NCBI GenBank assembly: GCA_965204495.1
Contig: OZ241989.1
Location: forward strand, 828,300-892,299
Length of the DNA stretch: 64,000 nucleotides
Source: Candidatus Hopanoidivoransaceae bacterium
Lineage (GTDB): Bacteria > Actinomycetota > Acidimicrobiia > Acidimicrobiales > Hopanoidiivorantaceae
Direction of reading: 5' to 3'
The position numbers and the translations under genes are program-made. Below, one piece after another: positions 6,231-64,000 of the stretch (within the stretch, counting starts at the first letter, position 1; each line of letters opens with the position of its first letter). Under the pieces are notes generated by a model, which was not told where the DNA came from, made no database searches, and saw only the letters and a list, made by a program, of their open reading frames with translations.

Positions 6231-8735
6231 TTACCCTGCTTCACAGTTGGGCATCAGAGCATCGGGCAGGGGGTCAGTGTGGATTACTGTCAGGCGGCGC
6301 ATGGCTCTGGTTAGGGCGACATATAGAGATTGGGTGCCTTTGGCGGTTTGGTTGATGATTTCGGCGGGTTCTAGGACTATGGCTGCGTCTACTTCTAGGC
6401 CTTTGGCGTAGCGGACGGGGAGGACGGAGACTGTGGTGCTGAGGGCTCCGTCGTAGGCGGTGGCGCATTCTATGCCGGCTGACCTCAAAGCATCGGCTGT
6501 GGCTTCGGTTTTGTCGTCGGGCACTATTACTGCCACTGTTGCGGCATCGGCTGCTTCTTGCTTTACGGCGGCTGCGACTTGTGAGAACAGATTTTCTTTG
6601 TCGGCTCGGATGACACTCGGGGGTGTGCCTTCTCGTTGCACGGCTACGGGCATCGCCAAGTCGGGGTTGATGTCGTCCAAAAGCTTGGCGGCATAGCAGG
6701 CTATGGGTTCGGGGAGGCGGTAGCCCACTGAAAGCTCGGTTGTGCGGGAGCACCACTTGCTGGGCAACTGCTCCAATAACTCTTCCCAAGAGTCGCACGA
6801 GAGAGGGCCTGTGGCTTGGGCGATGTCGCCGACCAAAGTCATGGAGCCGTTGCGGGAGCGACGGGCCGACATTCGCAGCTGCATCGGCGTGACATCTTGG
6901 GCTTCGTCTATCACCACATGTCCGTAGGTTCGCTCGCATAGGGGCGGCAGACTGGAAGTCTCGCTGCTGGCTGCGTCATCGGAATCGCCGCCGATTTGGC
7001 CAGCCCTGCTGCTGCGTCCTCTTTTGCGGTCGGGAGGGCCGAGCCGCCATCTGGCTTCGTCCAAAAGCGGCACATCGTCCATCGTCCATGACTCTTTAGG
7101 CGGGCGGTTGGAATCTCTGGGCGGGCGGGGGATAGCCAGCAGAGCAAGCTCTTCTGGCGAAAAGTGCTTGCGCCCGGCGGAGCGCAAAAGCGATGGCACG
7201 CTGAAGAGGTCGTAAAGGAACTGAGCCGGGGTGAGTGAAGGCCACATCCATTCCAGTGCTTCTCGCACTTCGGGAGTGTCGCCTATGTCTTCTCGGACTG
7301 CTTGGCTGTCAAGGGCGAATTCGCTCTCGGGCGCTTCGCCTTTGTGTAGGTTGGCGGCCTCGGCCAGCGCGCTGAAAAAACCGCTCTCTATGAGTTTGCG
7401 ACCTGCGCTGTGGGAAATCCGCCTGTTGCGAATGCTTTCTACCAGCTGACGGCTCTGCTCCACGGTGAAGCTGAATTCGGGACGATAGACGATCGTGAAG
7501 TCTTGTCGCAGAGGCCGTTGGCGATCTCTGAGGGCGCGCCTGATGAGCTGCGCCATTCGCAGGTCGCCTTTGACACGGGCTGCGGCTTCGGCGTCAAACC
7601 CTTCCACTACCACATCGGGGAGACCTAGCATCTCGGCTGGAGTAGCCACCACCGCTCCAGCTTCGCCAAGCGACGGCAGCACTATTTCTATGTAGTTGGC
7701 GAAAAGCCGGTTGGGGGCGACGATGAGCACCCCTTGGCGTTCCAGAGGGAAGCGGTGCGTGTAAAGCAGATAGGCGGCCCTGTGGAGGGCGACCACGGTC
7801 TTGCCCGTGCCCGGCCCACCTTGAACCACGAGCACTCCCGGCAGGGGCGAGCGGACGACTTCGTCTTGTTCGGCTTGGATGGTGGCAACGATGTCGCTGA
7901 GCCTGCCAGAGCGAGCTTCGGCGAGGGCTTGACGCACGGCACCGATGCCTCTGATGACGCGACCTGCGCTGTCGCGGACGGCTGGGCTGCTTCGGACTTC
8001 TGGACTGCTTCGGATATCTGTGCTGCCCTGCGCTATCGTGGCGGAGTCGACATCGCTAACGGCATCGCTGCTAGCGGCATTGCTGCTGATGGCATTGCTG
8101 GCCCCATCTTGAGCGGGGAAAGCATATCCAGCCTCATCGCCGAAATATTCGTCTTCAATGCGGAGCAGTCGGCGGCCTAAAGACGAGAAATGACGGCGGC
8201 GGCGAACCCCCATAGGCTCTGGCCCGGTTGCGCGATAAAACGGCTCAGCTACTGGTGCGCGCCAATCCACAATGACCGGGTTGTGCTCCTCGTCCCACAC
8301 CCCGATGCGACCGATGTAGAAAGTGGCCGCACCATAGCTAGCCGCACCATGGCTATCCCCATCTGAGCTAGCACCGCCTGAACTAGCACCGCCTGAACTA
8401 GCCCCGCTTGCGCCAGCCCCGCCATAGCCAGCCTCACCAGAACCAGCCACGCCCGCATCGCAAGCCATGTCAATCCGCCCGAAACAGAGCGAGCGGTCGC
8501 CCAACTCCATCCGCCCCAGCCTGCGCTGCACACGCTCTTCAATCACATCTCGCTCATAGCGCGCCTGGTGCGTGCCGCCCTTACCCGACTCCACAGTAGA
8601 GCGAAGCTGCCGGGCCGCCCCCTTTGAAGCCTCCAAGCAGGCAAAGGCGTGATCTACATAAGCCTGTTCCTGCTCAAGGTCGTCCGACAGCCCAAGATGA
8701 GAACTATCTGTTCTCTTGGATGTATGCGTGTGCAT
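6231..8735 (-). CDS. helD: HelD/HelR-family SF1 helicase-like RNA polymerase recycling ATPase
   Basis: LCFGRID, YIGRIGV, VIVDWRAPVAEPFYRAT, DIVATIQAEQDEVVRS, Walker A GGPGTGKT-VVALHRAAYLLY, HVVIDEAQD, KGLEVD, LYVALTRA. Confidence 0.9.
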   Translation of the reverse strand: MHTHTSKRTDSSHLGLSDDLEQEQAYVDHAFACLEASKGAARQLRSTVESGKGGTHQARYERDVIEERVQRRLGRMELGDRSLCFGRIDMACDAGVAGSGEAGYGGAGASGASSGGASSGGASSDGDSHGAASYGAATFYIGRIGVWDEEHNPVIVDWRAPVAEPFYRATGPEPMGVRRRRHFSSLGRRLLRIEDEYFGDEAGYAFPAQDGASNAISSNAASSDAVSDVDSATIAQGSTDIRSSPEVRSSPAVRDSAGRVIRGIGAVRQALAEARSGRLSDIVATIQAEQDEVVRSPLPGVLVVQGGPGTGKTVVALHRAAYLLYTHRFPLERQGVLIVAPNRLFANYIEIVLPSLGEAGAVVATPAEMLGLPDVVVEGFDAEAAARVKGDLRMAQLIRRALRDRQRPLRQDFTIVYRPEFSFTVEQSRQLVESIRNRRISHSAGRKLIESGFFSALAEAANLHKGEAPESEFALDSQAVREDIGDTPEVREALEWMWPSLTPAQFLYDLFSVPSLLRSAGRKHFSPEELALLAIPRPPRDSNRPPKESWTMDDVPLLDEARWRLGPPDRKRGRSSRAGQIGGDSDDAASSETSSLPPLCERTYGHVVIDEAQDVTPMQLRMSARRSRNGSMTLVGDIAQATGPLSCDSWEELLEQLPSKWCSRTTELSVGYRLPEPIACYAAKLLDDINPDLAMPVAVQREGTPPSVIRADKENLFSQVAAAVKQEAADAATVAVIVPDDKTEATADALRSAGIECATAYDGALSTTVSVLPVRYAKGLEVDAAIVLEPAEIINQTAKGTQSLYVALTRAMRRLTVIHTDPLPDALMPNCEAG

Positions 8736-9051
8736 ATATGATCTCCGCCGTCTCAAGAACACGCTTGCGAAAGCTGGGTAGAGTTCGCCACCACTCCAGG
8801 CTCTGGCGCGTCAGCAGATCCGTTTTCCTCCCGAAAATCTCAGAAAGCTCGCTAGCGGCAGTCTCAAAATCTAGAGAGAGCCAAGAATTCTCGTTCTCCA
8901 TTGTGATCAGCACATCCACATCGCTGTCTGAGCAGAAATCGTCTCTCAGGACTGAGCCGAACAAAGCTAGCTCAGTGATATGCCACTTTTGGCAAAACTG
9001 CGACACAGCTTGCTGATCCACATCGATAGGCAAAGGGGGCGCCATGCCCAT
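8704..9051 (-). CDS. Minimal nucleotidyltransferase (MNT/MntA-type antitoxin), no HEPN partner
   Basis: FCQKWHITELALFGSVLRDDF.SDSDVDVL (GS-x10-DxD) and LSEIFGRKTDL. Confidence 0.85.
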   Translation of the reverse strand: MGMAPPLPIDVDQQAVSQFCQKWHITELALFGSVLRDDFCSDSDVDVLITMENENSWLSLDFETAASELSEIFGRKTDLLTRQSLEWWRTLPSFRKRVLETAEIIYAHAYIQENR

Positions 9052-9135
9052 ATTTTACTTGGCAGTGGGCTTTCTTCCTCAAAAGCGATGTTTGGATACT
9101 CTCATATCCAATATCGCCATTAATCTTAAAGAGCG

Positions 9136-10179
9136 ATGACTTTGAGCGACGAAAATCCGTTTTTGGCGGCTTGCTATGGGCGGGCGCATGAGAGGGTGCC
9201 TGTGTGGTTTATGCGACAGGCTGGGCGGTCGCTGCCTGAATATCGTGCGCTTCGGGGGAGCGACAGCATTCTGATCGCTATAGCGGATGCTGATCTGGCC
9301 ACCGAGATCACGCTGCAGCCTGTGCACCGCTATGGCGTGGACGCTGCCATTTTGTTCAGCGACATCATGGTTCCCGTTCACGCTGTGGGCTTCGGCGTAG
9401 ACATCCAAACGGGCGTGGGGCCTGTGATCGCCGAGCCGTTTTCGGATGCCTCCGATCTTGAACGACTGCGCCCGCTGGAGCCTGAAGAAGACATCTCCTA
9501 TGTGCTGCAGACGGTGCGCAACCTGCAAGCCGAGCTTGTGGTGCCGCTCATCGGATTTGCGGGCGCGCCATTCACCGTTGCCAGCTATCTCATAGAAGGC
9601 GGGCCGACCAAGACTTTTCAGAAAACCAAATCCCTCATGTTTGCCGAGCCGGATCTGTGGGCGGCACTCATGGATCGGCTTTGCGACATCACTGAAGCGT
9701 TTCTGAAGGCGCAGGTTGAAGCGGGGGCGAGCGCGCTCCAGCTTTTTGACAGCTGGGCCGGCACCCTCAGCCCCTCGGCTTACGAGCAGATGGTCTTCCC
9801 CTACACCAAGCGCATCATCGCTGCGACTGACGGCCTCGGCCTGCCCAGAATCTGCCATGGTGTCGGCACTGGCGAACTGCTCGGGCTTTTCGCCCAGACT
9901 GGCGCCGAAGTCGTGGGCGTGGACTGGCGGGTTCCGCTGAACGAGGCTAGACGGCGCACCGGCGGGCAAGTGGCACTCCAAGGCAACCTTGACCCTGCTG
10001 TTTGCTTGGCACCTTGGCCGGTAGCTGCCGAGGAGACACGCAAAGTCTTGGCTGAGAACGGTTCAAACCCTGACTACATTTTCAATCTCGGACACGGAGT
10101 CTTGCCTCAGACCGACCCTGCGATACTGGAACAAATCGTGGAGTTGGTGCACGCCGAAGGCAGCTGCGAGGCGGCATGA
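9136..10179 (+). CDS. hemE: Uroporphyrinogen decarboxylase
   Basis: PVWFMRQAGRSLPEY, DAAILFSDI, LIGFAGAPFTVASY, QLFDSW, QGNLDP, IFNLGHG. Confidence 0.97.
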   Translation: MTLSDENPFLAACYGRAHERVPVWFMRQAGRSLPEYRALRGSDSILIAIADADLATEITLQPVHRYGVDAAILFSDIMVPVHAVGFGVDIQTGVGPVIAEPFSDASDLERLRPLEPEEDISYVLQTVRNLQAELVVPLIGFAGAPFTVASYLIEGGPTKTFQKTKSLMFAEPDLWAALMDRLCDITEAFLKAQVEAGASALQLFDSWAGTLSPSAYEQMVFPYTKRIIAATDGLGLPRICHGVGTGELLGLFAQTGAEVVGVDWRVPLNEARRRTGGQVALQGNLDPAVCLAPWPVAAEETRKVLAENGSNPDYIFNLGHGVLPQTDPAILEQIVELVHAEGSCEAA

Positions 10180-12017: not shown

Positions 12018-13586
12018 ATGAGCAGCACTTTTGCCGGCCTCAGCGGGATATATCGCCCTAACGACAACGCGCCTCGGCAATCCACCTTCTGGCTCGGGCT
12101 GCTTGCCTCTGCTCTCTGCGGCCTGCTCGTCGCCTTGTCGGTGCCGCCTTGGGGTTTCTGGCCGCTCGCATTCCTCGGAGTGGCCGGCATGGACTTCCTC
12201 TTGGACAACCAGCGCGCCCGTGTCCGCCTAGCGAGAGGCAGCTTCATCGCAGCAGGCTGGCTTTTCCCTTCCATGATCTGGATGTGGGACTTTTCCCCAA
12301 TGGGCTACATAGCCGCAGGTGTAGGATTTTCGCTGTTCTACGGCGTGGCAGGAGTGCTGTGCCCGCCCGATAGAAAGCTCCGCGGGCTGGCCTTGCCTGC
12401 TCTGCTGGTGCTGGTCGGCTATCTTCGCTGGCGATGGCCTTTCGGCGGGGTGCCGCTCTCCACTTTGGCGATGAGCCAAGCAGGATCGCCGCTGCTTGAA
12501 ACGAGCAGAATTTTCGGCTCGCTTTTCATAGTCTGGTTGGTGGGCTTGGGAGGCGTGAGCATCGCTGCGATAATCCGCCGCGACTGGTGGATTGCCGCTG
12601 TCGGGCCGGTGGTGCTAGCTTTGGCAGCCAGCTTAGCCCCTCTAGCACCCACAGCGCGTGCCACCGACACGATTCGCATAGCCCTCGTTCAAGGCGGCGG
12701 GCCGCAGCGCACCAGAGCCGAAACCACAGATTTCGCTGTAGTCTTGGGGGCGCACCTGGATGCCACAAGCGAGCTGGTTCAGCCTCCAGTGGATCTTGTG
12801 GTTTGGCCCGAAAATGTGGTGGATGTGGAGGGGACTTTCGGGCCGACCACCCCTCAAGCCGCCCAGATCGCAGATGTGGCCGAAGCGGTCGGCGCGCCCA
12901 TAGTGGCAGGCGTGATTGAAGACGCCGACGAAGACTCGTTCAACAACTTCAGCATCGTCATCACGGAAAATCGCGAGTTCGGCGACCGCTACGACAAAGT
13001 GCACCGAGTGCCTTTCGGAGAATATGTGCCCCTGCGCTGGCTGGTTGAGCCGTTCGCCCCCGACTTCTTGCCCGACCGCGAAGCCGTGGCTGGCACCGGG
13101 CCTGCCATTCTGGAAATACCCGGCGCAGCCAACGGGGAAGACTTGACAGCGGGCATAGTCATATCTTGGGAAATATTCTTTGAGCACCGAGTGCGCGATG
13201 CCGTGAACAACGGCGGTCAGATCGTCTTGAATCCCACCAACGGCTCTTCCTACTGGCTCACCATCGTTCAGTCGCAGCAGGTCGCCAGCAGCCGACTGCG
13301 AGCCATGGAAACCGACCGCTATGTGCTGCAAGCAGCCCCCACAGGCTTCACAGCCGTAGTCGCCCCCAACGGCAATGTGCAAGAACGCACCGCAGTCAGC
13401 GAACAGCGCGTCATCCACGCCGATGTAGAACTCCGTGAAGGCAAAACCCTGCCCGTCCGCCTAGGCCCCTGGCCCGCCCTAGGCATAGCCTTGATCACCT
13501 TCGCCTACCCCGGCACCCGCCACCTCCAAAACCGCCGCACCAAAAACCGCACCCAACTAGGCTTCCAGTTTTCCAGTCGGCGATAA
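12018..13586 (+). CDS. lnt: Apolipoprotein N-acyltransferase
   Basis: TM N-terminus, WPFGGVP, LVVWPE, YDKVHRVPFGEYVP, ISWEIFF, PTNGSSY, LRAMETDR. Confidence 0.93.
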   Translation: MSSTFAGLSGIYRPNDNAPRQSTFWLGLLASALCGLLVALSVPPWGFWPLAFLGVAGMDFLLDNQRARVRLARGSFIAAGWLFPSMIWMWDFSPMGYIAAGVGFSLFYGVAGVLCPPDRKLRGLALPALLVLVGYLRWRWPFGGVPLSTLAMSQAGSPLLETSRIFGSLFIVWLVGLGGVSIAAIIRRDWWIAAVGPVVLALAASLAPLAPTARATDTIRIALVQGGGPQRTRAETTDFAVVLGAHLDATSELVQPPVDLVVWPENVVDVEGTFGPTTPQAAQIADVAEAVGAPIVAGVIEDADEDSFNNFSIVITENREFGDRYDKVHRVPFGEYVPLRWLVEPFAPDFLPDREAVAGTGPAILEIPGAANGEDLTAGIVISWEIFFEHRVRDAVNNGGQIVLNPTNGSSYWLTIVQSQQVASSRLRAMETDRYVLQAAPTGFTAVVAPNGNVQERTAVSEQRVIHADVELREGKTLPVRLGPWPALGIALITFAYPGTRHLQNRRTKNRTQLGFQFSSRR

Positions 13587-13625: not shown

Positions 13626-15299
13626 ATGGCAGACACAGACCTATACAGCAAGACACATCCGCATCTGCCTGGGATGAGTTCACTTTCCGTATCCGAGGCA
13701 AGTGAGCAAACAGCTTCAGAGGCTATGACTATTCCGCAAGCCAGTCTCTGGGCATCCCAAAAAACAGGCCAAACTGTCACCCCGTCAAACATATCGTACC
13801 TTATAAAATACGACAGAATTCCTCACCAAAAGGAAAACGGTGCCACAACTGTTTCAATCTATGATTTGGAAAAATACTACTCAAGCAGACTTGGATCAAG
13901 AGAACTGGCATATAAAAGAAGACTTGGCGATGACATTAATTGGCACCTTTCCTTTGACCAGTACAAGGAAGCAGAGACAACAAAACATGTTCATCGCATT
14001 CATCCGTACAAAGGCAAGTTCATTCCCCAATTGGTGGAATATTTTCTAGATTCTCACACTGATGAATACAAAGAAATAGCTTGTTTCTCTGAAGGGGACA
14101 TAGTGCTAGACCCATTTTGCGGTAGCGGAACAACTTTAGTGCAATCCAATGAATTGGGGCTACATGCTGTAGGTATTGACATATCAATGTTCAATTCAAT
14201 GATCAGCAATCTTAAACTCAAAGAATATGATATTTCTCAATTGTCCATGGCTGCAGCCAAGATTGAAAAGTCTATTGAAGCTAATTCAGCAGGAATAGTG
14301 GCGCGTCAATTTGAAATTTCACTTCTTGCGGAGTTGAAAAAATATAACTCAATTTATTTTCCTGCTCCTGGATTTAGAAAAAGAGTGAGACTAGGTGAAA
14401 TTGATGAAAAATCCTATGCTGAATCTTGTCAACAAGAATTTTTAGAGGAATTTTATTCTCTACTTGATCAATATTCTGTGAGCAACGAAATAAACAGCGA
14501 CACAGGAGGATTTATCAATAATTGGTATCTTGAACCTGTAAAATCAGAAATTGACTCTGCTCTGCGAGAGATAGATAGAATAGCTGATGCCGACTTGCGA
14601 GACATTCTGAGATTGATCTTAAGTCGAACGGCTAGATCAGCTCGGGCAACCACTCATTTTGATCTAGCCACATTGATTACTCCAGTCAATGAGACATATT
14701 ATTGTCCCAAACACAGTAAAATTTGTAAACCGCTCTTCTCTATGCTGGGATGGTGGAAACGCTATGCCAAAGATACGATACAAAGATTAAATGAATTCAG
14801 TGAAATTCGAACTAAAACCAAACAACTATGCTTGACTGGAGATTCCCGAACAATTGACATTTTTTCAGCCGTTCAGGAAGAAGGCAAAGAGTTTGGCGAG
14901 ACAGTAAAAAACAATAAGATAAGGGGAATCTTCACAAGCCCTCCGTATGTCGGAGTAATTGATTACCATGAGCAACATGCCTACGCCTATGAGATGTTCA
15001 ATTTCCCCAGAAGGGACAGTTTTGAGATAGGGCCAATGAGTGCTGGAAACAATAAAGCTGCACAGACCGCCTATGTAGAAGGCATTTCAGATGTGCTATT
15101 AAACTGTAAGCAGTATCTCGTCGAAGATTTTGATATATTTATTGTAGCTAATGACAAAAATGAACTTTATTCTGAAATTGCAAAAAAGTCTGGACTAATG
15201 ATATGCCAAGAATACAAACGCCCCGTGCTGAACAGAGCAGAAGGCAACAAGGGAAAGTATGGGGAATCAATTTTTCACATGAAAAGGAGTGACAAATGA
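13626..15299 (+). CDS. Type II DNA amino-methyltransferase (probably m4C) with N-terminal HTH
   Basis: HRIHPYKGKFIPQL, motif I DPFCGSGTT, motif IV TSPPY; low GC. Confidence 0.9.
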   Translation: MADTDLYSKTHPHLPGMSSLSVSEASEQTASEAMTIPQASLWASQKTGQTVTPSNISYLIKYDRIPHQKENGATTVSIYDLEKYYSSRLGSRELAYKRRLGDDINWHLSFDQYKEAETTKHVHRIHPYKGKFIPQLVEYFLDSHTDEYKEIACFSEGDIVLDPFCGSGTTLVQSNELGLHAVGIDISMFNSMISNLKLKEYDISQLSMAAAKIEKSIEANSAGIVARQFEISLLAELKKYNSIYFPAPGFRKRVRLGEIDEKSYAESCQQEFLEEFYSLLDQYSVSNEINSDTGGFINNWYLEPVKSEIDSALREIDRIADADLRDILRLILSRTARSARATTHFDLATLITPVNETYYCPKHSKICKPLFSMLGWWKRYAKDTIQRLNEFSEIRTKTKQLCLTGDSRTIDIFSAVQEEGKEFGETVKNNKIRGIFTSPPYVGVIDYHEQHAYAYEMFNFPRRDSFEIGPMSAGNNKAAQTAYVEGISDVLLNCKQYLVEDFDIFIVANDKNELYSEIAKKSGLMICQEYKRPVLNRAEGNKGKYGESIFHMKRSDK

Positions 15300-16162
15300 C
15301 AGTTGACATGAGCAAGGTAGAGGAACTGATTGAGCTTAAACTAATGAGTTGGCTCAATGTCAAAAGGGACTCACAAATCTTGCAGCCTGCAGACATGCTA
15401 TTTCAAAGACTTCTAGTAGGAAGTAAGAGAGTGGCACTGAGTTCAATCGTCCATTCGCTGTCAACAATGTTCGGCATGTCAATCTACGAACAAATCGCCA
15501 AGCAAATATCGCTTGACTCGGGCAAATACGAAACTGTTGAAAGTCAGTACAGCATTGGAAACGAGCTATACACAAACGCCCAAAATGAAATTACTGATAT
15601 TTGCAATCAAATATCCACAGAAGAGATTCAAGCAAACCACCACGAAGAGGTGAGAAGAATTATCAATGCGTCATCAACAGATTCAGGTATCAACAAAAAG
15701 GATGTTCTCAAAGTGGATTTACTTTTGATAAATTCTGATGATGGAATTGTTTACCTGTTTGACCTAAAAACTGCTAAGCCCAATAAACTGAATTTTAGCT
15801 CATATAAACAAATGCTGCTTGAATGGGTTGCAGCATACATTTGTGAAAATAGATCAACCACTGATTGGAATGCCAGTGACTGGGATATAAGGGCAAGCGT
15901 AGCAATACCCTATAACCCGAATTATCCAGATGACTACAATTGGTGGACGCTTAGAATGCTGGACAAGAACCAAATTATGGTGGGTGCTGACTTCTGGAAT
16001 TACATAGCTGGAGACGAGAGCGCATTTTCTGAATTGATAGATTGTTTTACAAGAGTCAGCGAAAGACTGAGTCCTATGCTTGAAAGCTATCTTGCTGAGG
16101 TAGAAGAGCAGTATGACGAATTTGATGACACTTACCCAGTGCAAGACATTTTTCTCGCCTAA
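15296..16162 (+). CDS. TdeIII/MjaII-family type II restriction endonuclease
   Basis: HSLSTMFGMSIYEQIA, KVDLL...YLFDLKTAKPN, AIPYNP, MVGADFWNYIAG; ATGA overlap with the MTase. Confidence 0.82.
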   Translation: MTVDMSKVEELIELKLMSWLNVKRDSQILQPADMLFQRLLVGSKRVALSSIVHSLSTMFGMSIYEQIAKQISLDSGKYETVESQYSIGNELYTNAQNEITDICNQISTEEIQANHHEEVRRIINASSTDSGINKKDVLKVDLLLINSDDGIVYLFDLKTAKPNKLNFSSYKQMLLEWVAAYICENRSTTDWNASDWDIRASVAIPYNPNYPDDYNWWTLRMLDKNQIMVGADFWNYIAGDESAFSELIDCFTRVSERLSPMLESYLAEVEEQYDEFDDTYPVQDIFLA

Positions 16163-16248: not shown

Positions 16249-17532
16249 ATGCGCATAGCTCTTTTGACTTATCGGGGGAAGCCTCATGTGGGGGGGCAGG
16301 GGGTGTATGTGCGGGCTTTGAGCAAGGCTCTTTGCGACTTGGGGCATCATGTGGAGGTTTTTTCGGGGCAGCCTTATCCTGTGCTGGATTCTCGTGTGCG
16401 GCTTCACGAGCTGCCTAGCTTGGACATCTTCAACGACCTTTACCCAGCTCGGCTGCCGGGCTTTTGGGAGATCAAGACTTTGAGCGACGCGGCGGAGCTG
16501 GGCGGGTTTTTGACTGGGGCGTTTTCAGAACCTATGGCTTTCAGCTTGCGGGCATACTTCGCCCTCAAAGACCGCATCGGCGAATTCGACCTGGTGCACG
16601 ACAATCAATGTCTCGGCTACGGCCTGCTAGCCATTGAAAACGCCGGGCTGCCTGTGCTGGGCACTATTCACCATCCCATCACTGTGGATCGCCGATTGGA
16701 AGTCACCCATGCTCGGCGCCCTCTGGAGCGGTTCGCCAAGAGCCGCTGGTATTCTTTCACTGCCATGCAGACCAGAGTGGCGCAGCGGCTGCAACGGATA
16801 CTCACCGTCTCGCAGTCTTCGCACGAAGACATCTGCCGAGACCACAAGATTTCGCCAGAGAAGCTCGTGGTGGTGCCTGTGGGCGTGGATCCCGATGTCT
16901 TTCGCCCGCTCGCGGGAGTAGCCCGTGAGCCGGGGCGGATCATCACCACGACCTCTTCAGATGTAGCCATGAAAGGGCTGCGCTATCTTCTGGAAGCTGT
17001 CGCCGAGCTGCGCCGTGAGCGAGACATCAAGCTCTGGGTGATCGGCAAGCCCAAGGAAGGCGGCACGGTTGCTCGCACGATAGACAAGCTAGCCATTGGC
17101 GACATCGTGGAATTCGTATCGGGCGTGCCGGAAGAGCGGATTGTGGAGATGTACGCCCAAAGCGAAGTCGTGGCGGTGCCTTCGCTCTATGAGGGCTTTT
17201 CGCTGCCAGCTATTGAGGCGATGTCTTGTGCTGCGCCGCTCGTCACTACCACTGGCGGGGCACTGCCAGAAGTGGTTGGACGACATAACGAGACGGCGTT
17301 TCTCGTGGAGCCGGGCGATGCTGCTGCGCTCGTCAAGATGATCCGCCATGTCATGGACTCGCCTGAGCTAGCCGCCGAGGTCGGCTTGGCAGGGCGCGAA
17401 CGGGTGGCGACACGCTGGAGTTGGCAGCACACCGCCCAACGCACTGAGGCGCAGTATCAACAGCTGCTTGAGAACTGGCAGCAGCCTCGCCATTCCATAG
17501 CAGACAGCATCCTGCGTTCTGTCGGCCTCTGA
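16249..17532 (+). CDS. GT4 glycosyltransferase, ManT-like (MMP mannosyltransferase)
   Basis: MRIALLTYRGKPHVGGQGVYV, DLVHDNQCLGYG, PSLYEGFSLPAIEAMSC; cluster context. Confidence 0.8.
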   Translation: MRIALLTYRGKPHVGGQGVYVRALSKALCDLGHHVEVFSGQPYPVLDSRVRLHELPSLDIFNDLYPARLPGFWEIKTLSDAAELGGFLTGAFSEPMAFSLRAYFALKDRIGEFDLVHDNQCLGYGLLAIENAGLPVLGTIHHPITVDRRLEVTHARRPLERFAKSRWYSFTAMQTRVAQRLQRILTVSQSSHEDICRDHKISPEKLVVVPVGVDPDVFRPLAGVAREPGRIITTTSSDVAMKGLRYLLEAVAELRRERDIKLWVIGKPKEGGTVARTIDKLAIGDIVEFVSGVPEERIVEMYAQSEVVAVPSLYEGFSLPAIEAMSCAAPLVTTTGGALPEVVGRHNETAFLVEPGDAAALVKMIRHVMDSPELAAEVGLAGRERVATRWSWQHTAQRTEAQYQQLLENWQQPRHSIADSILRSVGL

Positions 17533-45715: not shown

Positions 45716-48502
45716 ATGGATGATCGCGAGTTATTGCTGGCAGAACTTTCACTCAGGATTGCTAAAGCATCTTCCAGCATAGTAACCCTAGAGAAAGAGT
45801 CACCGGTATATCATTCTGATCTTGTGGCTGGCAGATCACCTTCTGCGAATCAAACAGAAGAGCTGGTCCGCGCCTTATACATACACTATCTGGTGCACGA
45901 TCTTGGCTATGCTCCAGAACTCATATCAATGGAACACCCAGTTCCGGCTAAAACAGGGCGAGGACAAGGGGATAAATATGTTGATATTGTTATATGGAAA
46001 GAAAAATCTGGACAAGCATCCAATTGTTTCTGCCTATTGGAAATAAAAACGCCGGATGCATATTATCAAGAACACAAAGATGCTTGGGAGGGACAGCTCT
46101 TTGGGATATCAGAATTTATTGATCCTAGACCCTCATGTTTAGCTTACGGGACCTGGCAGTCAGAGCCAAGTGGGTTAGGCGTGCCTATACTGGAAGTTGT
46201 TGATTCTTCAATGTGGCATTCATACAAAGAATGGAATAGTAATAACCAACCAATTAAGTCTGATGTCATTCCAAAAAACTACGATAAACCAATTAAATCT
46301 TCATATATTTATGGCAGTCCAGTAAAAGATCTAAAGCGAGATATGGATGAGAGGGAGGCTACCTTTTTGCAAAGACACCTTCATAATGTTTTATGGGGAG
46401 GCGGGGGTTCCACTGATTCTGACATATTCAACCTACTGACTAGACTGATTTTTGCGAAAGCATTCGATGAGATGACTGCATCGCCGGGCGAAGAATATCA
46501 ATTTCAGACAAAAGAAGGAGAAACTTTAGAATCCACTCTTATGAGAATAACTGATTTATACCAAGAGGCTTTAATAAAGCGACTTTCTTATCCTGAAGAA
46601 GTAGCAACTAATAGACCTATAAGGGAAGCTGGAAAGGGAACTGAAGCACAAATACGCTTTGCTATTGAACAATTAGAAAAATATCACCTAACAGACCTTG
46701 CTAATTCGTCTGCAACGCCTGATCTATTGGGTGGTCTTTTTGAATACATAATGCGAACAGGCTTTAAGCAGTCAAAAGGCCAGTTTTTTACACATCCGAA
46801 CATTGCTAAGTTTTTAGTTGACATTCTTCAGATTGGAGAGCAATCTGTAAAATATATTGATTCTGGCAAGGAACTACCAAAAATAATGGATCCATCAGCA
46901 GGAGCAGGTACTTTTTTAATTGCTGCAATGAATTCTATATCTGAGAAAGTAAGAGAGTATGAAAGAGATAATAGAGGGAACATGAGTCAGTTAAGTAAAC
47001 AAGTATTGTCTTCCTTAATTGATCAGCCAAGGCGCAATGAATGGGCAAAAAATACTTGCTATGGTATTGAACTTAATTCTGATTTAGGGTTAGCCGCACA
47101 GGTGAATATGTTTGTTCACGGAGACGGTTCGTCCTCTATTTTCACTGGGCAAGAAGAAGGAGATGGTCTTGCGTCCTTCTCTTCTTACACCCGAAAAGAT
47201 ATTTTATTATCCAGCGAACTTCAAGATTATCAATTCCCGGTGTCAGAAACATTTGATTTCGTCGTTACTAATCCTCCTTTTTCAGTGAAATTCACGGATA
47301 GTCAGATGGAAAAATACAGGAAATCTTTTGGCCTTGCATCAGAAACACAGAACAGCGAAGAATTGTTTATTGAACGCTGGTTTCAGCTACTTAAACCAGG
47401 CGGAAGATTAGGAGCAGTTGTGCCGAACAGTCTATTAGATTCTAGAAGTGAAACACCTGCACGCAATTTTCTATTGAGACATTTTTGGATCAAAGCCATC
47501 ATATCATTACCTTCTGATGCGTTTTATCCTCATACTATGACAAAAACTTCTTTGCTTATTGCCGAGAAAAAAGATAACAATACTTTTAAGTCTCGTAGCT
47601 CCATGCCACTTGAAAAACTCTTGAAAGGAAATGGCGAGATAGTTTTTGGTCAAGTCTCATATCTTGGTTATCAGCGCACAGCAAAAGGTGAAAAAGAAGA
47701 TCAAAAAAATGACTTAAACGCTATTTTAACTGAAACTGAAACATTGAACTTGTGGAATTCAAAATTATCTGAAATAGATAGTAAAATTCTAAAGGTAGTT
47801 CCTTCTGATGCAATACCAACAAAACCAACTGTCAGACTGGATGCAGAATATGCTTTACAACAATCATTGATATCTAGTCCTATGACAATAAATGAAATAT
47901 TTGTTCTATCTGAATTCCCTGAGATTGACTCAGAACCAAATGATATCTATAATTATTGCGAAATTGGCGATATAGATCGCATGGGTTTAGCCTCTCCAAG
48001 AATAATTGACCCATCAACACAAGATGATAATCCAGAAATGCGAAAGCAGATTGATCGTATCCGAAAGAAAGTTCAACAAGGGAAAGCGATGAAACCAGAT
48101 AGCTGGTGTATCCTAGTACCTAAAACTCGGCCATATCTCAAAAAGTTCGCTATTGTCAATGGTAAAGAAAACTCATATTTTACTACTGATTTTTTTGTTC
48201 TGAAACCAGGAAACCAGCTTATTGAACATTGCAATAAAAATGAAGAAGATGCTACATGCTTGTTGTTGCTTCTGTTAAAAGGAGAGTTGAATTCACTATT
48301 GACTTCTCTTTCAAGATGGGGAAAATCATATCCAACTCTTCACAAGGACGATCTGTCTAGTGCTTATATAGATCAACAAGTTTTTGAAAAGATGCTTACA
48401 TCAGAGGTTATCTATGATGCTAAACTAGTCAGAGAAAAGGTAGAGGCAAGTATAGAAGCGAGAAATAATTTATTGCGCATAATTCAGCGTGTCGAAGGAT
48501 AA
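45716..48502 (+). CDS. Fused restriction-modification protein (HsdR_N-like nuclease + N6-adenine MTase + putative TRD; type IIG-like)
   Basis: EELVRA...GY...VDIVI...LEIK nuclease motif; KGQFFTH, MDPSAGAGTF, NPPF; low GC; SD AAGGAG. Confidence 0.82.
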   Translation: MDDRELLLAELSLRIAKASSSIVTLEKESPVYHSDLVAGRSPSANQTEELVRALYIHYLVHDLGYAPELISMEHPVPAKTGRGQGDKYVDIVIWKEKSGQASNCFCLLEIKTPDAYYQEHKDAWEGQLFGISEFIDPRPSCLAYGTWQSEPSGLGVPILEVVDSSMWHSYKEWNSNNQPIKSDVIPKNYDKPIKSSYIYGSPVKDLKRDMDEREATFLQRHLHNVLWGGGGSTDSDIFNLLTRLIFAKAFDEMTASPGEEYQFQTKEGETLESTLMRITDLYQEALIKRLSYPEEVATNRPIREAGKGTEAQIRFAIEQLEKYHLTDLANSSATPDLLGGLFEYIMRTGFKQSKGQFFTHPNIAKFLVDILQIGEQSVKYIDSGKELPKIMDPSAGAGTFLIAAMNSISEKVREYERDNRGNMSQLSKQVLSSLIDQPRRNEWAKNTCYGIELNSDLGLAAQVNMFVHGDGSSSIFTGQEEGDGLASFSSYTRKDILLSSELQDYQFPVSETFDFVVTNPPFSVKFTDSQMEKYRKSFGLASETQNSEELFIERWFQLLKPGGRLGAVVPNSLLDSRSETPARNFLLRHFWIKAIISLPSDAFYPHTMTKTSLLIAEKKDNNTFKSRSSMPLEKLLKGNGEIVFGQVSYLGYQRTAKGEKEDQKNDLNAILTETETLNLWNSKLSEIDSKILKVVPSDAIPTKPTVRLDAEYALQQSLISSPMTINEIFVLSEFPEIDSEPNDIYNYCEIGDIDRMGLASPRIIDPSTQDDNPEMRKQIDRIRKKVQQGKAMKPDSWCILVPKTRPYLKKFAIVNGKENSYFTTDFFVLKPGNQLIEHCNKNEEDATCLLLLLLKGELNSLLTSLSRWGKSYPTLHKDDLSSAYIDQQVFEKMLTSEVIYDAKLVREKVEASIEARNNLLRIIQRVEG

Positions 48503-48543
48503 AAGATACTTATAATTGCAATTGATTTGCAGAAAATTGATAT

Positions 48544-49544
48544 TTAAGCAAAAAAGTTGTAGTCCCAATTCATTGATATGGGTGGCAGTTTTACTGAGTA
48601 GGCTCCAGGATACATATTGCCTCGAAAAAAATTAAGCAGGGGTATTGTTTTAGATTCTGGTAGTGAACTCCAATATGACGGGCGAAAAAGCAGACCGTCT
48701 CCATTGGTCAACAAAAACTTTGAAATTAATTGCTGTTTTTCTTCCAGAGTTCCATGAATTAATTTGCTGAAATCCTGTTTAAAAAGGTTATATTCACTTT
48801 CAAGCATTGACAGCACTACTAGAAGCTTCTCTTTTTCTATCAGAGGATAAATATTAATTTTCAAATTTATAGCATTATCAAGTAAGTTATGTGGATTTTC
48901 CATCATTGTCATACCAGTACTTAAGATAATGCCTTGCTGTTTTAGTGGAAATACCAGTATCATATGTCTCAATTTCCCCCAAGAACGGCTTTTTCTTATA
49001 TTTTTATAGTTCACCAATTGACTATCACCTGCATATTGCCTCATATCCAAATAATCCATATTTCCACGCATGGGCTTAAGCATGTCGGGAGGCAACTCTT
49101 TCTTGAATTTTTCAATGCTATGGTATTTATTCTCTTCTGACCAAACATTTCTTAACACCTGTCTAAAAGCCATGTAAAATAGCTCCTTGTTGTCACGCTT
49201 TTGTGGAATTTTATTGTCTACACATTGAAATATCTGATCATGCTCCCAACACAGGCCGGAGAATTGAGCTGCTGCAGAGATGTCTACTTCAGTTGGCTCA
49301 ATTGAAGGCATCGGTGTCCCTATATCATTTTTCCCAATTATTTTTGATTTAAACACGATAACTTTGCCGGACTCAGCTATAGTTTTAGACATCAGATTTC
49401 TTGACACAAAGTGGGCATTAATCGCCGGATTGCCACAGGGCTCAGGTTGTGGGAATACGCACTTTTCAAAGCTCCAGGTCCACTAAAGCGGACAGCCTTC
49501 AAAACTGTATTAAGGTGAGATTTGACTTCTTCGTCATTTGCCAT
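48544..49544 (-). pseudogene. Cys/His putative zinc-binding protein, frameshifted near 49485
   Basis: ATG 49544 gives MANDEEVKSHLNTVLKAVRF; a different frame continues WTWSFEKCVFPQPEPCGNPAINAHFVSRN...FSGLCWEHDQIF... to the stop at 48544. Confidence 0.6.
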
Positions 49545-49706
49545 GATAACATTCTATAAGCTGCGACAACTATTGAGAGTCAATTGTATCAGACGACAGT
49601 AAACAGAATGTCCCAATGTTTTCTTCAGAAAGCATAGGCGTTATATTAACCTGAGTTCCACTGCTTGCGACATAGATGCAGACAAGGCACCTGATGTTCA
49701 GACTGA

Positions 49707-49856
49707 CAGAGAAGAATCCTAAAGCGGCAATCAACCGTGTCGGCACTCCTAAATGACGCTGTGAAGGAAGGTCTCATTGTTGTGGCCAACCCGTCTGATG
49801 GCAAACGAAGTCGCCATTATCGGCCCTTTTGGGATCCACCTGAAACAGGATTTTAA
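49707..49856 (+). pseudogene. C-terminal remnant of an AlbA/Schlafen-HATPase_c_4 (RecG-C-like) ATP-binding protein
   Basis: KRQSTVSALLNDAVKEGLIVVANPSDGKRSRHYRPFWDPPETGF*; the YxPFW tail is typical of this family; upstream in-frame stop and no credible start. Confidence 0.5.
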
Positions 49857-49867
49857 TAGGCAGTTTG

Positions 49868-50010
49868 TTTAAGCCCATTTAAGAATTAGCCCCAAAAACC
49901 GCTTCACGAACCCCAAAAACCCTGAAAAATCAAGGATCGACACACCAGACTTTATTTAAGCCCATTTAAGAATCAGCCCCAAAAGCCCACTCGCGGAACC
50001 CGAAAACCCT
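49868..50010. repeat. About 56-bp imperfect direct repeat, period 87 bp, at the islet edge
   Basis: tttaagcccatttaagaat(t/c)agccccaaaa...aaaaccct at 49868 and 49955. Confidence 0.85.
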
Positions 50011-50235
50011 TCACTCCTTCCCCGTATCCCGTTCAAGCGGTGGGGGCAGAGCTCGCACCTTGTCGGCGTGACGCGGCACTAGACTGGAGGTAGCTAAAAT
50101 GTGCTTATGCTGATAACTACTGAGACATGCGACTGGCGCATGGCGTGTGCGAGGCGCAGGGCGTGCGCCCGGCGTGCCGCGTGCGAGAGATGCGCTTCGG
50201 GCGGCAGGTGCTGGGAGACATGCGGAAGGTGAGCG

Positions 50236-50323
<88 letters not shown>

Positions 50324-54386: not shown

Positions 54387-54421
54387 AGCCAAACCTCCCA
54401 GACTGCTCCCAGCTTTTGCCG

Positions 54422-54676
54422 CTACTCAATAGGAGCCATCAGCGACATTTCGTCTTGACAATGAATCGGAGGCGGAGGGTCTTCTGTGGGCGAGACTGTC
54501 ATTCGCATCTCTGTTCCGCAGATGTCGCAGCGGTACATTAGCTTCACTTTTCGCAGCTCGCCGGCAGGCGGCGGTTCGGGGGGAGTCTGCGACAGCAGCC
54601 GCAATGCCCAGATGCCGCCGACCACAATCAGCAGTCCCACCCCCACTGCCACCAGAATGTTCAGAAATGTTCCCAC
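54422..54676 (-). CDS. Small single-TM protein with zinc-ribbon-like motif
   Basis: N-terminal TM helix, YRCDICGTEMR...PPIHCQDEM. Confidence 0.7.
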   Translation of the reverse strand: MGTFLNILVAVGVGLLIVVGGIWALRLLSQTPPEPPPAGELRKVKLMYRCDICGTEMRMTVSPTEDPPPPIHCQDEMSLMAPIE

Positions 54677-54880
54677 TTGCCTGCTCCTATTATCACCGCT
54701 CGCCTTTCTCAGAATCACCGCTTGCCTGCCCCTGCAATCACTGCTCCCTGCTCCTGCAATCACCGCTCGCCTGCCTCAAAAATCTCAAATTTCCCTGCTC
54801 CTGCAATCTCAGCTTGCTTGCTCATATAGTCTGATGCTAACTAAACTTTAAGCTCAACCCAAAAAAGAAAGGCAAGACTC

Positions 54881-55417: not shown

Positions 55418-55481
55418 CTTCCAGACTTTTGGCTGGCAACCCGCGTAAAATTTTCTGAAAAATATATCTATAGTGGCAATT

Positions 55482-60487: not shown

Positions 60488-61480
60488 CTACCTCCCCTCT
60501 TCGGCTTCTTCTGCGTCGCGGCGGTATTCTTCTTCAATCCGTTCGCCGGTGTGATGGAAGAACACATCGTCCAAAGTGGGCGTGCTGAGCGACACCTTCA
60601 CCACAGGCATCCCGGCAGCAGACAGAGCCAGAGCCACAGGGCTGATGGTGGCCGCGCCCTGAGACGAAGAAATCACTAGCTCCGAGCCTTTGGCCTCCAC
60701 ATGCTCCACGCCTTGCACTCCCCCCAGCACTGACCCAGCATCGGCGTCACCCTCAAAGCACTCGTCTGCGGGGCAGTCCAAATTCACCACGATCACATCT
60801 TTGCCCACCTGGTGCTTCAACTCTTCTGGCGTGTCTTCCGCCACGAGGTTGCCCGAGTTGAAGATGGCGACTCGCCCGGCAAGTTCGTCGGCCTCTTCCA
60901 GATACTGCGTGGTCAAGAAAATCGTCACGCCCATGTTCTGGTTGAGATGGCGTATCTCTTCCCAAACGGTGGCTCGGCTGGTCGGGTCTAGCCCGGTGGT
61001 GGGTTCGTCCAAGAACATCACCAAAGGGCTGTGGATGAGAGCGATGGCCACATCAAGCCTGCGTTTCATCCCGCCTGAATATGTGTGAACCCGCCGGTCT
61101 ATGGCGTCCATCTCCAGAATCGGCGCAAGCTCGTCAATCCGCTTGGTGATCTCAAGCGAGCTGAGTCCGTAATACCTGCCCTGTATGCGCAAGAGCTCTC
61201 GCCCCGTCATCTTCTCGTCCAATGCCGTGCTCTGCAGAGCAGCCCCGACCCTCTTGCGCACCTCGTGCGGGGCCTTAGTCACATCAAAGCCCGCCACCTC
61301 AGCCCGCCCCGAAGTGGGAGCCAAAAGCGTGCAGAGCATCTTCACCGCCGTGGTCTTGCCCGCCCCGTTCGGCCCCAGAAACCCGTAAATCTCCCCCTCC
61401 GCCACCTCCAAAGAAAGCTCGTCAACCGCCCGAAGCTCCCCAAAATGCCGAGACAAACTCTCAGCCGTTATCGCAGACAT
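60488..61480 (-). CDS. ABC transporter ATP-binding protein (DrrA-like)
   Basis: GPNGAGKTT, YSGGMKRRLD, FLDEPTTGLDP, LTTQYLEEAD, PTLDDVF. Confidence 0.93.
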   Translation of the reverse strand: MSAITAESLSRHFGELRAVDELSLEVAEGEIYGFLGPNGAGKTTAVKMLCTLLAPTSGRAEVAGFDVTKAPHEVRKRVGAALQSTALDEKMTGRELLRIQGRYYGLSSLEITKRIDELAPILEMDAIDRRVHTYSGGMKRRLDVAIALIHSPLVMFLDEPTTGLDPTSRATVWEEIRHLNQNMGVTIFLTTQYLEEADELAGRVAIFNSGNLVAEDTPEELKHQVGKDVIVVNLDCPADECFEGDADAGSVLGGVQGVEHVEAKGSELVISSSQGAATISPVALALSAAGMPVVKVSLSTPTLDDVFFHHTGERIEEEYRRDAEEAEEGR

Positions 61481-63432: not shown

Positions 63433-63506
63433 TGGAGCTGATGGGACTCGAACCCACGACCCCCTGCTTGCAAAGCAGGTGCTCTAGCCAGCTGAGCTAC
63501 AGCCCC
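63433..63506 (-). tRNA. tRNA-Ala(TGC), CCA not encoded
   Basis: Reverse complement GGGGCTGTAGCTCAGCTGG...CCTGC-TTTGCAA-GCAGG...GGTTCGAGTCC..CAGCTCCA. Confidence 0.96.
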
Positions 63507-63599
63507 GTGTGTGCTTATGCTAGCGGCAAATGCTGTTTATGCCTTGATCTGCGGAGAAAGTGCTTTAATCTGCGTTGAAACAGGCAAGCTAGATAGAAC

Positions 63600-64000
63600 A
63601 TGCTTGACATTCATTTGATTCGCAGAGACCCTGAAGGGGTGCGGGCTGGGATAGCGCGGCGGGGCGAAGGCTCGGTGGCGCTGGCCGACTTGGAGAAGGC
63701 GCTGGAGCTTGACAGGGAGCGGCTGCAGCGCATTCACGATCGGGACGCTATTCGCCATGAGATCAACGAGCTTTCGGGGCAGGTGCGGGATTTGCGGCAG
63801 GCGGGCAAGGTTGAGGAGGCCCAAGAACTGCAAGCCAAGAGCCGTCAGCTCGGGCACGAAGAAAGCCTGCACTCCGACCGTGTGGTGGTGCTGGACGAGG
63901 AGATACGCTCGCTGCTGCTCGCCATCCCCAACATTCCTGCCGCCGACTGCCCCGACGGGAGAAGCGAGGCTGACAACCCCGTGCTGAACTTGCATGATGA
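63600..64000 (+). CDS. serS: Seryl-tRNA synthetase, N-terminal part (truncated by the window edge)
   Basis: Manual translation MLDIHLIRRDPEGVRAGIARRG...LLLAIPNIPAADCPDGRSEADN; not in the ORF track. Confidence 0.93.
   Translation, partial: MLDIHLIRRDPEGVRAGIARRGEGSVALADLEKALELDRERLQRIHDRDAIRHEINELSGQVRDLRQAGKVEEAQELQAKSRQLGHEESLHSDRVVVLDEEIRSLLLAIPNIPAADCPDGRSEADNPVLNLHD

Follow-up and report, generated by a model that had tools for sequence, protein, structure and literature searches.

Replication origins and promoters are known to carry local skews in strand composition, and meiotic break sites show them as patterns of mutation; in most bacteria, the leading strand carries more G than C and more T than A. 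In this report, we analyze a 64,000-nucleotide stretch of DNA (hereafter, the window) that comprises bases 828,300-892,299 of a Candidatus Hopanoidivoransaceae genome (G000), which is a single contig (G000:C1) of 2,624,990 bases with a G+C content of 56.7% by base counts. The nearest named relative among the records examined is a sponge-associated metagenome-assembled genome. Along the window, the forward (+) strand repeatedly changes from C/A-rich to G/T-rich at junctions between genes, and a sequence-only reading had proposed that these switches mark recombination hot spots. We find that the switches belong to a real, lineage-specific bias on the keto (G, T) versus amino (A, C) axis, and that it is concentrated near the ends of conserved genes, over a few hundred bases, where these genes adjoin DNA that has been gained, lost, or rearranged.

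Several described systems resemble this pattern in part. The skew switch at a replication origin also runs from C/A to G/T on the + strand and lies on the keto/amino axis. However, it extends over a replichore, whereas the switches described here decay within 200-450 nt, occur at hundreds of sites, and stop at coding boundaries; the cumulative GC-skew minimum of this genome is at 1.35-1.40 Mb, as compared with 0.83-0.89 Mb for the window. Accessory-gene hot spots (2017, PMC5635113) are described as sites where genes turn over between two conserved genes whose ends are the presumed recombination arms. Likewise, accessory content differs between our genome and its sister genome at sites bounded by conserved genes, but the available excerpts of that report mention no strand-composition skew in the flanks, whereas here a polar bias at silent sites is found in one lineage. 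At human meiotic break hot spots (Hinch et al. 2023, PMC7615360), an asymmetry of C/A versus G/T is described that flips at the site and spans a few hundred to a few thousand bases, and the sign flips at the site on the same A+C/G+T axis here. By our reading of the excerpted account, however, a central break predicts the opposite polarity; the mutation rate is raised there, whereas the substitution rate is not raised here; and the asymmetry concerns de novo mutations there and standing composition here.

CpG-island promoter asymmetries and the R-loop GC skew at human gene ends (PMC2817419, PMC3787257) are similar in that the skew runs outward both ways from a fixed site. In the available parts of those reports, however, the skew is tied to transcription starts, whereas promoters at conserved junctions here are almost unshifted. 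An association of genomic islands with changes in the sign of GC skew was reported by Du et al. (2011, PMC3148964). As described in the accessible portion of that study, its 100-kb windows capture switches on the scale of origins, termini, and rearrangements, and the switch arises partly from the islands' own composition; in contrast, the islands here are neutral and the conserved flanks are skewed on a scale of about 300 nt. Finally, the G+T composition and the 3'-ended strand favored by RecA and Chi, according to excerpts of PMC3763553, match the strand that is skewed here, although no discrete oriented motif comparable to Chi is established. In a search of full-text literature, the coverage of which excludes most subscription journals, we found no report that the conserved flanks of exchange hot spots in bacteria have a polar skew.

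The bias was measured as K3, which is (G+T-A-C)/N at codon position 3, and its change across a junction as delta, the K3 difference on the + strand between the right and left flanks. Genes were predicted with a caller of our own that reads position 3 only as strong or weak and hence is blind to G/T versus A/C; its start codons are uncertain, and its calls in the window agree with Pfam. A previous caller based on full codon usage was replaced, having shifted starts past G/T-rich 5' ends, lost genes, and produced a metagene profile that hid the effect. For comparison we used a sister genome of the same genus (G002), of which 1.2 Mb (52%) was compared with our genome, yielding 806 reciprocal best hits (median identity 84.5%).

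Gene ends are more strongly skewed where the neighboring gene differs from the neighbor of the sister ortholog. At intergenic distances above 30 nt, K3 is -0.367 at such 3' ends versus -0.154 at conserved ones (p=5e-11), and +0.086 versus -0.073 at 5' ends (p=1.2e-6); since the two flanks of one junction, and also the two genomes, are not independent, this and later p-values are optimistic. The difference persists within strata of neighbor orientation and intergenic distance (Z=5.32 for 5' ends and -6.65 for 3' ends). Thus, the proposed tie between skew switches and strain- or species-variable loci survives control for gene end, neighbor orientation, and intergenic distance.

In a second approach, junctions were classified solely by how long the spacer between consecutive conserved genes is in each genome, which makes the classes independent of small open reading frame (ORF) calls. 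Conserved junctions have a K3 of -0.153 at 3' ends (n=459) and -0.077 at 5' ends (n=478). The corresponding values are -0.402 (n=61) and +0.197 (n=37) where our genome has an insert, -0.423 (n=24) and +0.046 (n=14; p=0.13) where the insert is in the sister genome and the site is empty in ours, and -0.351 (n=57) and +0.130 (n=46) at rearrangement breakpoints. By Mann-Whitney tests against conserved junctions, p ranges from 1.5e-9 to 3.4e-5 in five of these six classes, the exception being 5' ends at empty sites. Relative to the gene body, 5' ends shift by +0.20 to +0.25 at variable junctions and by about +0.03 to +0.04 at conserved ones.

Only the end that faces the variable junction shifts, as judged from groups of 453, 80, 115, and 67 genes. 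Among the 80 genes whose 5' side is variable and whose 3' side is conserved, K3 begins at +0.13 and the 3' ends resemble those of controls; conversely, the 115 genes in which only the 3' side is variable begin as controls do and fall to -0.43 close to the 3' end. Among variable flanks, the predicted sign is found at 108 of 134 3' ends and at 65 of 87 5' ends; among conserved flanks, the corresponding numbers are 256 of 418 and 226 of 447. Orthologous ends in the sister genome are equally skewed in kind, whichever genome has the insert (-0.246 versus -0.071; +0.058 versus -0.046). The polarity is constant: the strand that is read 5' to 3' away from the border is G/T-rich on both sides. Within the 357 kb of a third member of the genus (G003), only 8 and 5 variable flanks have orthologs.

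The sequence-only reading had listed observations that would speak against its proposal: equal skew at all gene ends, an explanation by amino acid composition, or equal skew in orthologs of free-living Acidimicrobiia. Instead, variable and conserved ends differ, codon position 3 dominates, and the bias is near binomial expectation in two genomes of other families, with a mean of -0.09 among 84 hemE orthologs.

The anatomy of the borders can be seen in a raw-sequence profile over all positions, in which gene calls serve only to define boundaries. Going from gene toward junction, the skew in the flanks of 110 inserts in our genome falls from 0 to -0.13 over about 450 nt and is back to 0.00 in the first bin of inserted DNA, whereas the profile of 1052 conserved flanks remains within 0.02 of zero. 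At 30-nt resolution, the skew at variable junctions peaks 30-90 nt inside the gene, is weak over the 30 nt next to the boundary, and is gone just past the start or stop codon. The suggested fading over a few hundred base pairs corresponds to about 200-450 nt. Because the skew ends at the start or stop codon and the insert is neutral, the signal belongs to the conserved coding flanks and not to the junction DNA or the islets.

Contigs from other public runs contain alternative forms of some sites in the window; among the runs listed with this DNA, none is an RNA run. In these contigs, a restriction-modification (R-M) gene pair is skipped by joining position 13585 (run X1) or 13565 (run X15) to 16250, stop codon to start codon, and in run X15 a small nucleotidyltransferase (MNT) gene is skipped by joining 8687 to 9150; the short sides of these islet-scale joints span 29-30 letters. 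Thus, a single site has coexisting empty and occupied alleles, as is evident from both the spacer classes and the run contigs. Polarity is clear in the flanks of both islet-scale joints (S=+0.36 and +0.67 to +0.71), which are at the 96th and at least the 99.9th percentiles of random placements. Ten joint loci lie in DNA that is more skewed than random (mean |K-M| 0.180 versus 0.109, P=0.0012), and small indel joints are without polarity, their S values being of mixed sign. Over the whole stretch, counts of variants in other runs (1492 differing places) look symmetric.

In the window itself, all 11 of the 60-nt G and C counts given in the sequence-only reading were reproduced to the base. On the + strand, the R-M pair is flanked by 31C/8G (13501-13560) and 27G/9C (16261-16320), the MNT gene by 31C/13G (8401-8460) and 26G/13C (9181-9240), and a gene encoding an ATPase-TOPRIM protein, together with tRNA-Ala, by 29C/8G (61381-61440) and 29G/13C (63661-63720). 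A count of 30C/10G (45541-45600) precedes an islet with tRNA-Leu, a divergent junction has 23C/10G (37021-37080) and 36G/3C (37321-37380), and the remaining bins have 28C/7G (41341-41400) and 22G/7C (6301-6360). Over all 60-nt bins in the window, G-C has a standard deviation (SD) of 7.07 and a range of -29 to +33, as compared with a binomial SD of about 5.8 by our arithmetic for the same G+C content. The genes concerned are listed in Table 1.

Table 1. Gene ends and islets of the window at which the skew was examined; positions are those of the window, and base counts refer to codon positions.
Feature	Position	Strand	Composition and annotation
UvrD-like helicase gene, 3' end	6231..6410	-	coding strand C/A-rich (+ strand G/T-rich); position 3 A20 C28 G6 T6; Pfam UvrD-helicase/AAA_19
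Same UvrD-like helicase gene, 5' end (left MNT flank)	8343..8735	-	coding strand G/T-rich; + strand K3 -0.40
MNT gene (small nucleotidyltransferase), strain-variable islet	8704..9051	-	Pfam NTP_transf_2; no reciprocal best hit in G002
hemE (uroporphyrinogen decarboxylase), 5' end (right MNT flank)	9136..9315	+	G/T-rich; position 3 A4 C10 G28 T18
CN-hydrolase gene, 3' end (left R-M flank)	13200..13586	+	C/A-rich; position 3 A13 C38 G5 T4; + strand K3 -0.76
R-M pair (DNA methylase and TdeIII-type endonuclease), inserted relative to G002	13626..16162	+	Pfam N6_N4_Mtase, RE_TdeIII
GT4 glycosyltransferase gene, 5' end (right R-M flank)	16249..16500	+	G/T-rich; position 3 A1 C8 G29 T22; + strand K3 +0.72
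CoA-transferase gene, 5' end (left side of divergent junction)	36956..37135	-	coding-strand position 3 A3 C12 G34 T11; junction conserved in G002
FAD-linked oxidase gene, 5' end	37269..37448	+	most G-rich stretch of the window; position 1: 37/60 G; position 3: G35 T17
Fe-S/CCG-domain gene, 3' end (convergent with tRNA-Ser and pheA)	41258..41437	+	C/A-rich; position 3 A17 C35 G2 T6
Metallo-beta-lactamase-fold gene, 3' end (left flank of 4.7-kb islet)	45300..45616	+	C/A-rich; position 3 A12 C37 G7 T4; + strand K3 -0.64
4.7-kb islet (type IIG-like R-M fusion gene, unassigned gene, tRNA-Leu), inserted relative to G002	45716..50323	.	Pfam N6_Mtase, Eco57I, HSDR_N_2; tRNA-Leu 50236-50323
ABC ATPase gene, 5' end	61301..61480	-	coding strand G/T-rich; position 3 A1 C8 G35 T16; + strand K3 -0.68
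serS, 5' end	63600..63779	+	G/T-rich; position 3 A4 C14 G29 T13; + strand K3 +0.44

The R-M pair has the largest delta in the window (+1.48); delta is +0.96 across the MNT junction and +0.68 across the 4.7-kb islet. The spacer at the R-M site measures 2662 nt here and 138 nt in the sister genome, and that at the site of the 4.7-kb islet 4747 and 164 nt. The R-M islet itself is unskewed, with a 150-nt profile that is near zero throughout. Switches occur at divergent, convergent, and tandem junctions alike, as had been suggested, and the skew is indeed weak at the operon-internal amtB/glnD junction (delta +0.12).

Some further observations were made in the window. Between genes for a glutamine amidotransferase and a DoxX protein (54077-54881), the sister genome has about 9.6 kb where ours has 0.8 kb. 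A leucine-rich-repeat protein of 1387 residues (55473-59636) has no reciprocal best hit among the searched regions of the sister genome. The spacer at 17533-17646, which separates a glycosyltransferase gene from a methyltransferase gene, has a strong C/A excess (a GC skew of -0.48 for the 150-nt bin at 17551), and three other runs have contigs with different short sequences in its place (joints 17498->17575/17582 and 17535->17639). Approximately 190 codons at the start of a glucose/sorbosone-dehydrogenase-like gene precede its Pfam domain (21328-21900) and constitute a C/A-rich patch of 600 nt in which K-M falls to -0.44, opposite to the usual 5' trend, and which contains strain-variable indels (joints 21387->21500 and 21551->21613).

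The bias resides largely in synonymous positions, as had been noted: on one side of a junction the third base of codons tends to be G or T, and on the other side C or A. Genome-wide, variable flanks shift by -0.237 and +0.192 at position 3, by -0.061 and +0.048 at position 1, and by -0.037 and +0.002 at position 2. The shift at position 1 thus has the same direction as that at position 3 and about a quarter of its size (p=3e-4 and 0.019). The alternative description of the pattern as genes with keto-rich 5' ends and amino-rich 3' ends is also correct, and all junction types read C/A and then G/T on the + strand. Because this pattern is its own reverse complement, orientation alone cannot separate a junction-centered cause from a gene-oriented one.

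The window samples a patchwork that extends over the whole genome, as three measurements establish. In 27,530 half-overlapping windows of 50 codons, K3 has an SD of 0.278, as compared with a binomial value of 0.141, and 244 of these windows are below -0.78, where 0.0 are expected. When K3 is computed separately from even and odd codons of 40-codon windows (interleaved K3), the two values correlate with r=0.66. A three-state hidden Markov model recovers a C/A-rich state (probability of G/T 0.22, mean dwell 37 codons) and a G/T-rich state (0.71, 25 codons).

The bias acts at the level of DNA, not of decoding. Amino acid usage shifts with it: Val accounts for 10.5% and Thr for 4.5% of residues in G/T-rich windows, versus 5.0% and 10.0% in C/A-rich windows, and Ile and Asn behave like Thr in being less used in G/T-rich windows. 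In 922 spacers, intergenic skew is correlated with + strand K3 in the gene ends on either side (r=0.37 and 0.34). GC and TA skews co-vary even when measured at disjoint sites (disattenuated r=0.59), and T is as strongly depleted as G in C-rich patches. Translation speed or wobble decoding was rejected as the main cause, because C-starting anticodons are present in all codon boxes among the 47 tRNAs of the genome, and amino acid usage and intergenic DNA also shift. A tRNA-Sec (anticodon tca) is among these 47 tRNAs. C/A-rich patches often use the codons CTA (Leu), GTA (Val), and ATA (Ile), with CTA making up 31% of Leu codons there versus 9% overall, and hence CTAG-containing words recur in the 3' ends examined as examples.

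The genome has a mean K3 of -0.107. Genes for ribosomal proteins, RpoB/C, and EF-G are not G/T-rich on the coding strand, most having a K3 of about -0.05 to -0.35, which argues against strong deamination of the non-template strand in highly expressed genes. Just downstream of the ribosomal-protein region is a 492-codon gene (G000:C1 1,106,394-1,107,872) that has a K3 of -0.53 over its whole length (A 0.29, C 0.48 at position 3), far from the values of its neighbors. Replication strand was set aside as an explanation, since regional effects amount to about +/-0.1 to 0.2 with many changes of sign, are far weaker than the patches, and leave the polarity at junctions unexplained. On the large scale, cumulative GC skew has the minimum mentioned above and a maximum at about 2.25-2.30 Mb, such that the two arcs are very unequal, and the sign of the regional strand effect changes often. 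One 50-kb bin at about 1,950,000-2,000,000 of G000:C1 has a GC skew of +0.252 and a T-A skew of +0.174, far above all other bins, and minus-strand genes at 1.9-2.0 Mb have a K3 of -0.42. This irregular large-scale skew suggests rearrangements or an unusual replication layout.

The skew is lineage-specific. The SD of K3 and the interleaved correlation are 0.278 and 0.66 in our whole genome (the latter on 220 aligned gene pairs) and 0.290 and 0.64 in 400 kb of the sister genome, whose HemE is 89% identical. They decrease to 0.226 and 0.46 in 357 kb of the third genus member, whose HemE is 71% identical, and are near noise in 200 kb from each of two genomes of other families in the same order, which served as unskewed controls (0.164 and 0.18 in G010; 0.165 and 0.15 in G017). 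Over codons 8-67, the 5' end of hemE has a K3 of +0.53 here and +0.27 in the sister genome, and of -0.36 and -0.15 in two other members of the genus; this skew is absent from 84 further orthologs of Acidimicrobiales and other actinobacteria (mean -0.09, SD 0.15, maximum +0.25).

An inventory of repair genes had been suggested as a check, and among 31 genomes UDG, endonuclease V, NucS, and Ku show no distribution that tracks the skew. UDG is present in all 31, endonuclease V in 1 (in none of the 4 members of the genus), NucS in 19 (including all 4 members of the genus), and Ku in 18. Ku is found in none of the five family genomes, two of which are single-contig, nor in the two unskewed control genomes.

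Whether the bias reflects mutation or fixation was assessed at four-fold degenerate sites of identical residues, for which identity between our genome and the sister genome was corrected, approximately, for both compositions. Corrected identity is 0.339 and 0.340 in variable 3' and 5' flanks, 0.300 and 0.336 in the conserved ones, and 0.324-0.339 in gene bodies. In this two-genome comparison, silent divergence is therefore not raised in variable flanks, and there is no excess similarity either. Because a strand-biased mutational input that moves K3 by 0.2-0.3 should lower this identity, the result favors a bias in what becomes fixed, rather than added mutagenesis. The strand-asymmetric mutational process envisaged in the sequence-only reading is thus not borne out, and local re-initiation of replication, its other suggestion, lacks support in that the effect ends within about 450 nt and at the coding boundary. 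NucS acts on G-T, G-G, and T-T mismatches, and we considered it as an anti-recombination filter; by reasoning only, this candidate was rejected because it predicts the opposite sign in the arms.

Three geometries yield the observed polarity, namely, outward DNA synthesis, outward transcription, and an incoming fragment that is resected from its ends. Outward synthesis is weakened by the stop at coding boundaries, the neutral insert, and the divergence that is not raised, and outward transcription by the small effect at transcription-unit ends, the action of the bias at the DNA level, and the same stop at coding boundaries. The resected fragment fits the confinement to coding flanks, the neutral islets, the skew at empty sites, and the stop-to-start joints, and it matches the hot-spot turnover by double recombination in flanking core genes that is described in excerpts of PMC5635113. 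With moderate confidence, we explain the skew as a by-product of repeated homologous exchange through the flanking genes, whose ends act as recombination arms. Recombination as the cause, the "ends-out" geometry, and fixation bias over mutation are what we infer from the pattern.

In this scheme of homologous exchange, incoming linear double-stranded DNA, consisting of arm, islet, and arm, would be resected 5' to 3' from its ends, and the surviving 3'-ended strand of each arm would be the strand that is G/T-rich here. The bias might then arise through better integration of arms, if RecA filaments prefer G/T-rich single strands, or because A and C are damaged or edited where the strand is exposed, and many rounds of exchange could build up the polarity of the skew. 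RecA binds TGG and G/T-rich DNA preferentially, according to excerpts of PMC3763553. We tentatively suggest a recombinational drive, in which G/T-richer 3'-ended arms may invade better, or incoming strands may be edited at A/C, such that conserved gene ends would be silently recoded into "landing pads" of fixed polarity. Arms that invade better would be passed on more frequently, along with the cassettes between them. It is a somewhat speculative step further to view such a drive as a strand-polar analogue of biased gene conversion.

As regards the proteins involved, our genome encodes a ComEC-type channel and Rho, and we did not find RecC in it. Adjacent reading frames of 1247 and 1168 residues have PD-(D/E)XK nuclease domains and, judging from their size and adjacency, likely form an AdnAB-like two-subunit helicase-nuclease, so that the machinery for such exchange would be available. 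None of these findings discriminates among the geometries. Among words over-represented in one orientation, the top ones are GTGGTGG (40 occurrences versus 8.3 expected) and TGTGGTGG (20 versus 2.1). GTGGTGG has 1232 occurrences, of which 730 are in-frame Val-Val codons.

Several results weigh against exchange through gene ends as a full account. Large deltas occur at junctions that are conserved in the sister genome, such as 37135|37269 (+1.20) and 41437|41712 (+1.28), and at the flanks of the ATPase-TOPRIM gene, which are likewise conserved (+0.64 and +0.84); in all, 6 of the 25 window junctions in the conserved class have a delta of at least +0.64. Conversely, a site that is empty here and occupied in the sister genome (54077|54881) has a delta of -0.40. 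The link of skew to variable junctions is therefore statistical, not one-to-one. Many skewed patches also lie inside genes, far from any junction visible in the comparison of two genomes, so that junction class explains only part of the genome-wide patchiness. No discrete Chi-like motif is established, given that the top words are mostly in-frame Val-Val codons whose orientation follows the general skew, and the preference of RecA is known from Escherichia coli and not from this organism. Finally, the inventory of 31 genomes revealed no gain or loss of a repair gene that explains the lineage restriction. Of the examples given in the sequence-only reading, the R-M, MNT, and tRNA-Leu islets are variable, whereas the sister genome shares the arrangement at 37021-37380, at 41341-41400, and around the ATPase-TOPRIM gene. 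The ATPase-TOPRIM gene, between the ABC ATPase gene and serS, has a 70.7%-identical ortholog there, and the conserved convergent junction at tRNA-Ser and pheA has a + strand K3 of -0.84 on its left and +0.44 on its right.

The sequence-only reading regarded a transcription-unit effect as the main alternative to its proposal, and such an effect could act through C-rich, G-poor zones for loading of Rho, which is encoded, through promoter-proximal R-loops with damage to the non-template strand, or through unstructured A/C-rich RNA. A minor component of this kind exists. Among 647 genes of at least 1200 nt, K3 declines from about 0 in the first 20 codons to between -0.22 and -0.25 in codons -50 to -20, with positions 1 and 2 flat. 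Among 1445 genes, the 3' shift relative to the gene body is -0.133 at convergent ends, -0.087 and -0.093 at spaced tandem ends, and -0.040 where the next gene is less than 30 nt away (p=4.3e-5), the 5' shift being +0.05 to +0.08 regardless of context; even conserved convergent ends remain at -0.12 to -0.31. However, these means are small beside the SD of windows (0.25-0.33), and, within the same classes of orientation and spacing, variable junctions are much more skewed, so that junction variability adds a much larger effect. Conserved-junction 5' ends, which also bear promoters, are shifted only by the small amount given above, and untranslated DNA just past the start or stop codon is unskewed at variable junctions. 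Depletion of T along with G and co-variation of the two skews are not predicted by a simple requirement for C over G, and the highly expressed genes named above are not G/T-rich on the coding strand. We consider it unlikely that transcription units are the principal cause.

Site-focused mutagenesis, whether by repeated breaks with error-prone fill-in or by local bidirectional starts of replication, would produce the right polarity on geometric grounds, as this is the polarity of an origin and of a nascent strand that runs outward. A decay over 200-450 nt is plausible for resection tracts, and, in the available part of PMC7615360, the repair of breaks at meiotic hot spots in humans introduces mutations with a strand asymmetry, although 3'-tail damage of a break at the junction would, by our reading of that part, give the opposite polarity. 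Four-fold identity is not lower in variable flanks, insert and intergenic DNA nearest the junction is unskewed, a replication start is expected to affect many kilobases and not 450 nt, and fill-in during end joining is unlikely, as Ku was found in none of the five family genomes; thus, we regard this explanation as distinctly unlikely. Causality could instead run in reverse, with stretches of G or C runs that arise otherwise being fragile or slippery and attracting breaks, indels, and insertions. Runs of at least four G on the outward strand are indeed more frequent in variable flanks (6.92 versus 4.27 per kb), and the ten loci of small strain-variable indels lie in more skewed DNA, as noted above. 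Yet fragility offers no reason for a fixed two-sided polarity or for the stop at coding boundaries, the small indels are unpolar, and only the two islet-scale joints are clearly polar, which makes this an improbable cause. An artefact of home-made gene calls, ortholog classification, or spurious composition-driven ORFs was also considered, as skewed DNA is poor in stop codons on both strands and a codon-usage caller is misled at skewed 5' ends. The effect holds, however, with the K3-blind caller, with spacer-length classes, in the raw profile, and in those genes of the window that Pfam confirms, and it is consistent with the contigs of other runs; an artefact is therefore very improbable.

The two codon "dialects" of this genome mislead gene finders that are trained on codon usage. 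If the link of skew to variable junctions holds, hot spots of exchange would be predictable from a single genome, including sites that are empty in that strain, and the sequence of an uncultured organism would offer a rare trace of its recombination geometry. It could also be tested whether recombination biases fixation by strand, beyond its effect on G+C.

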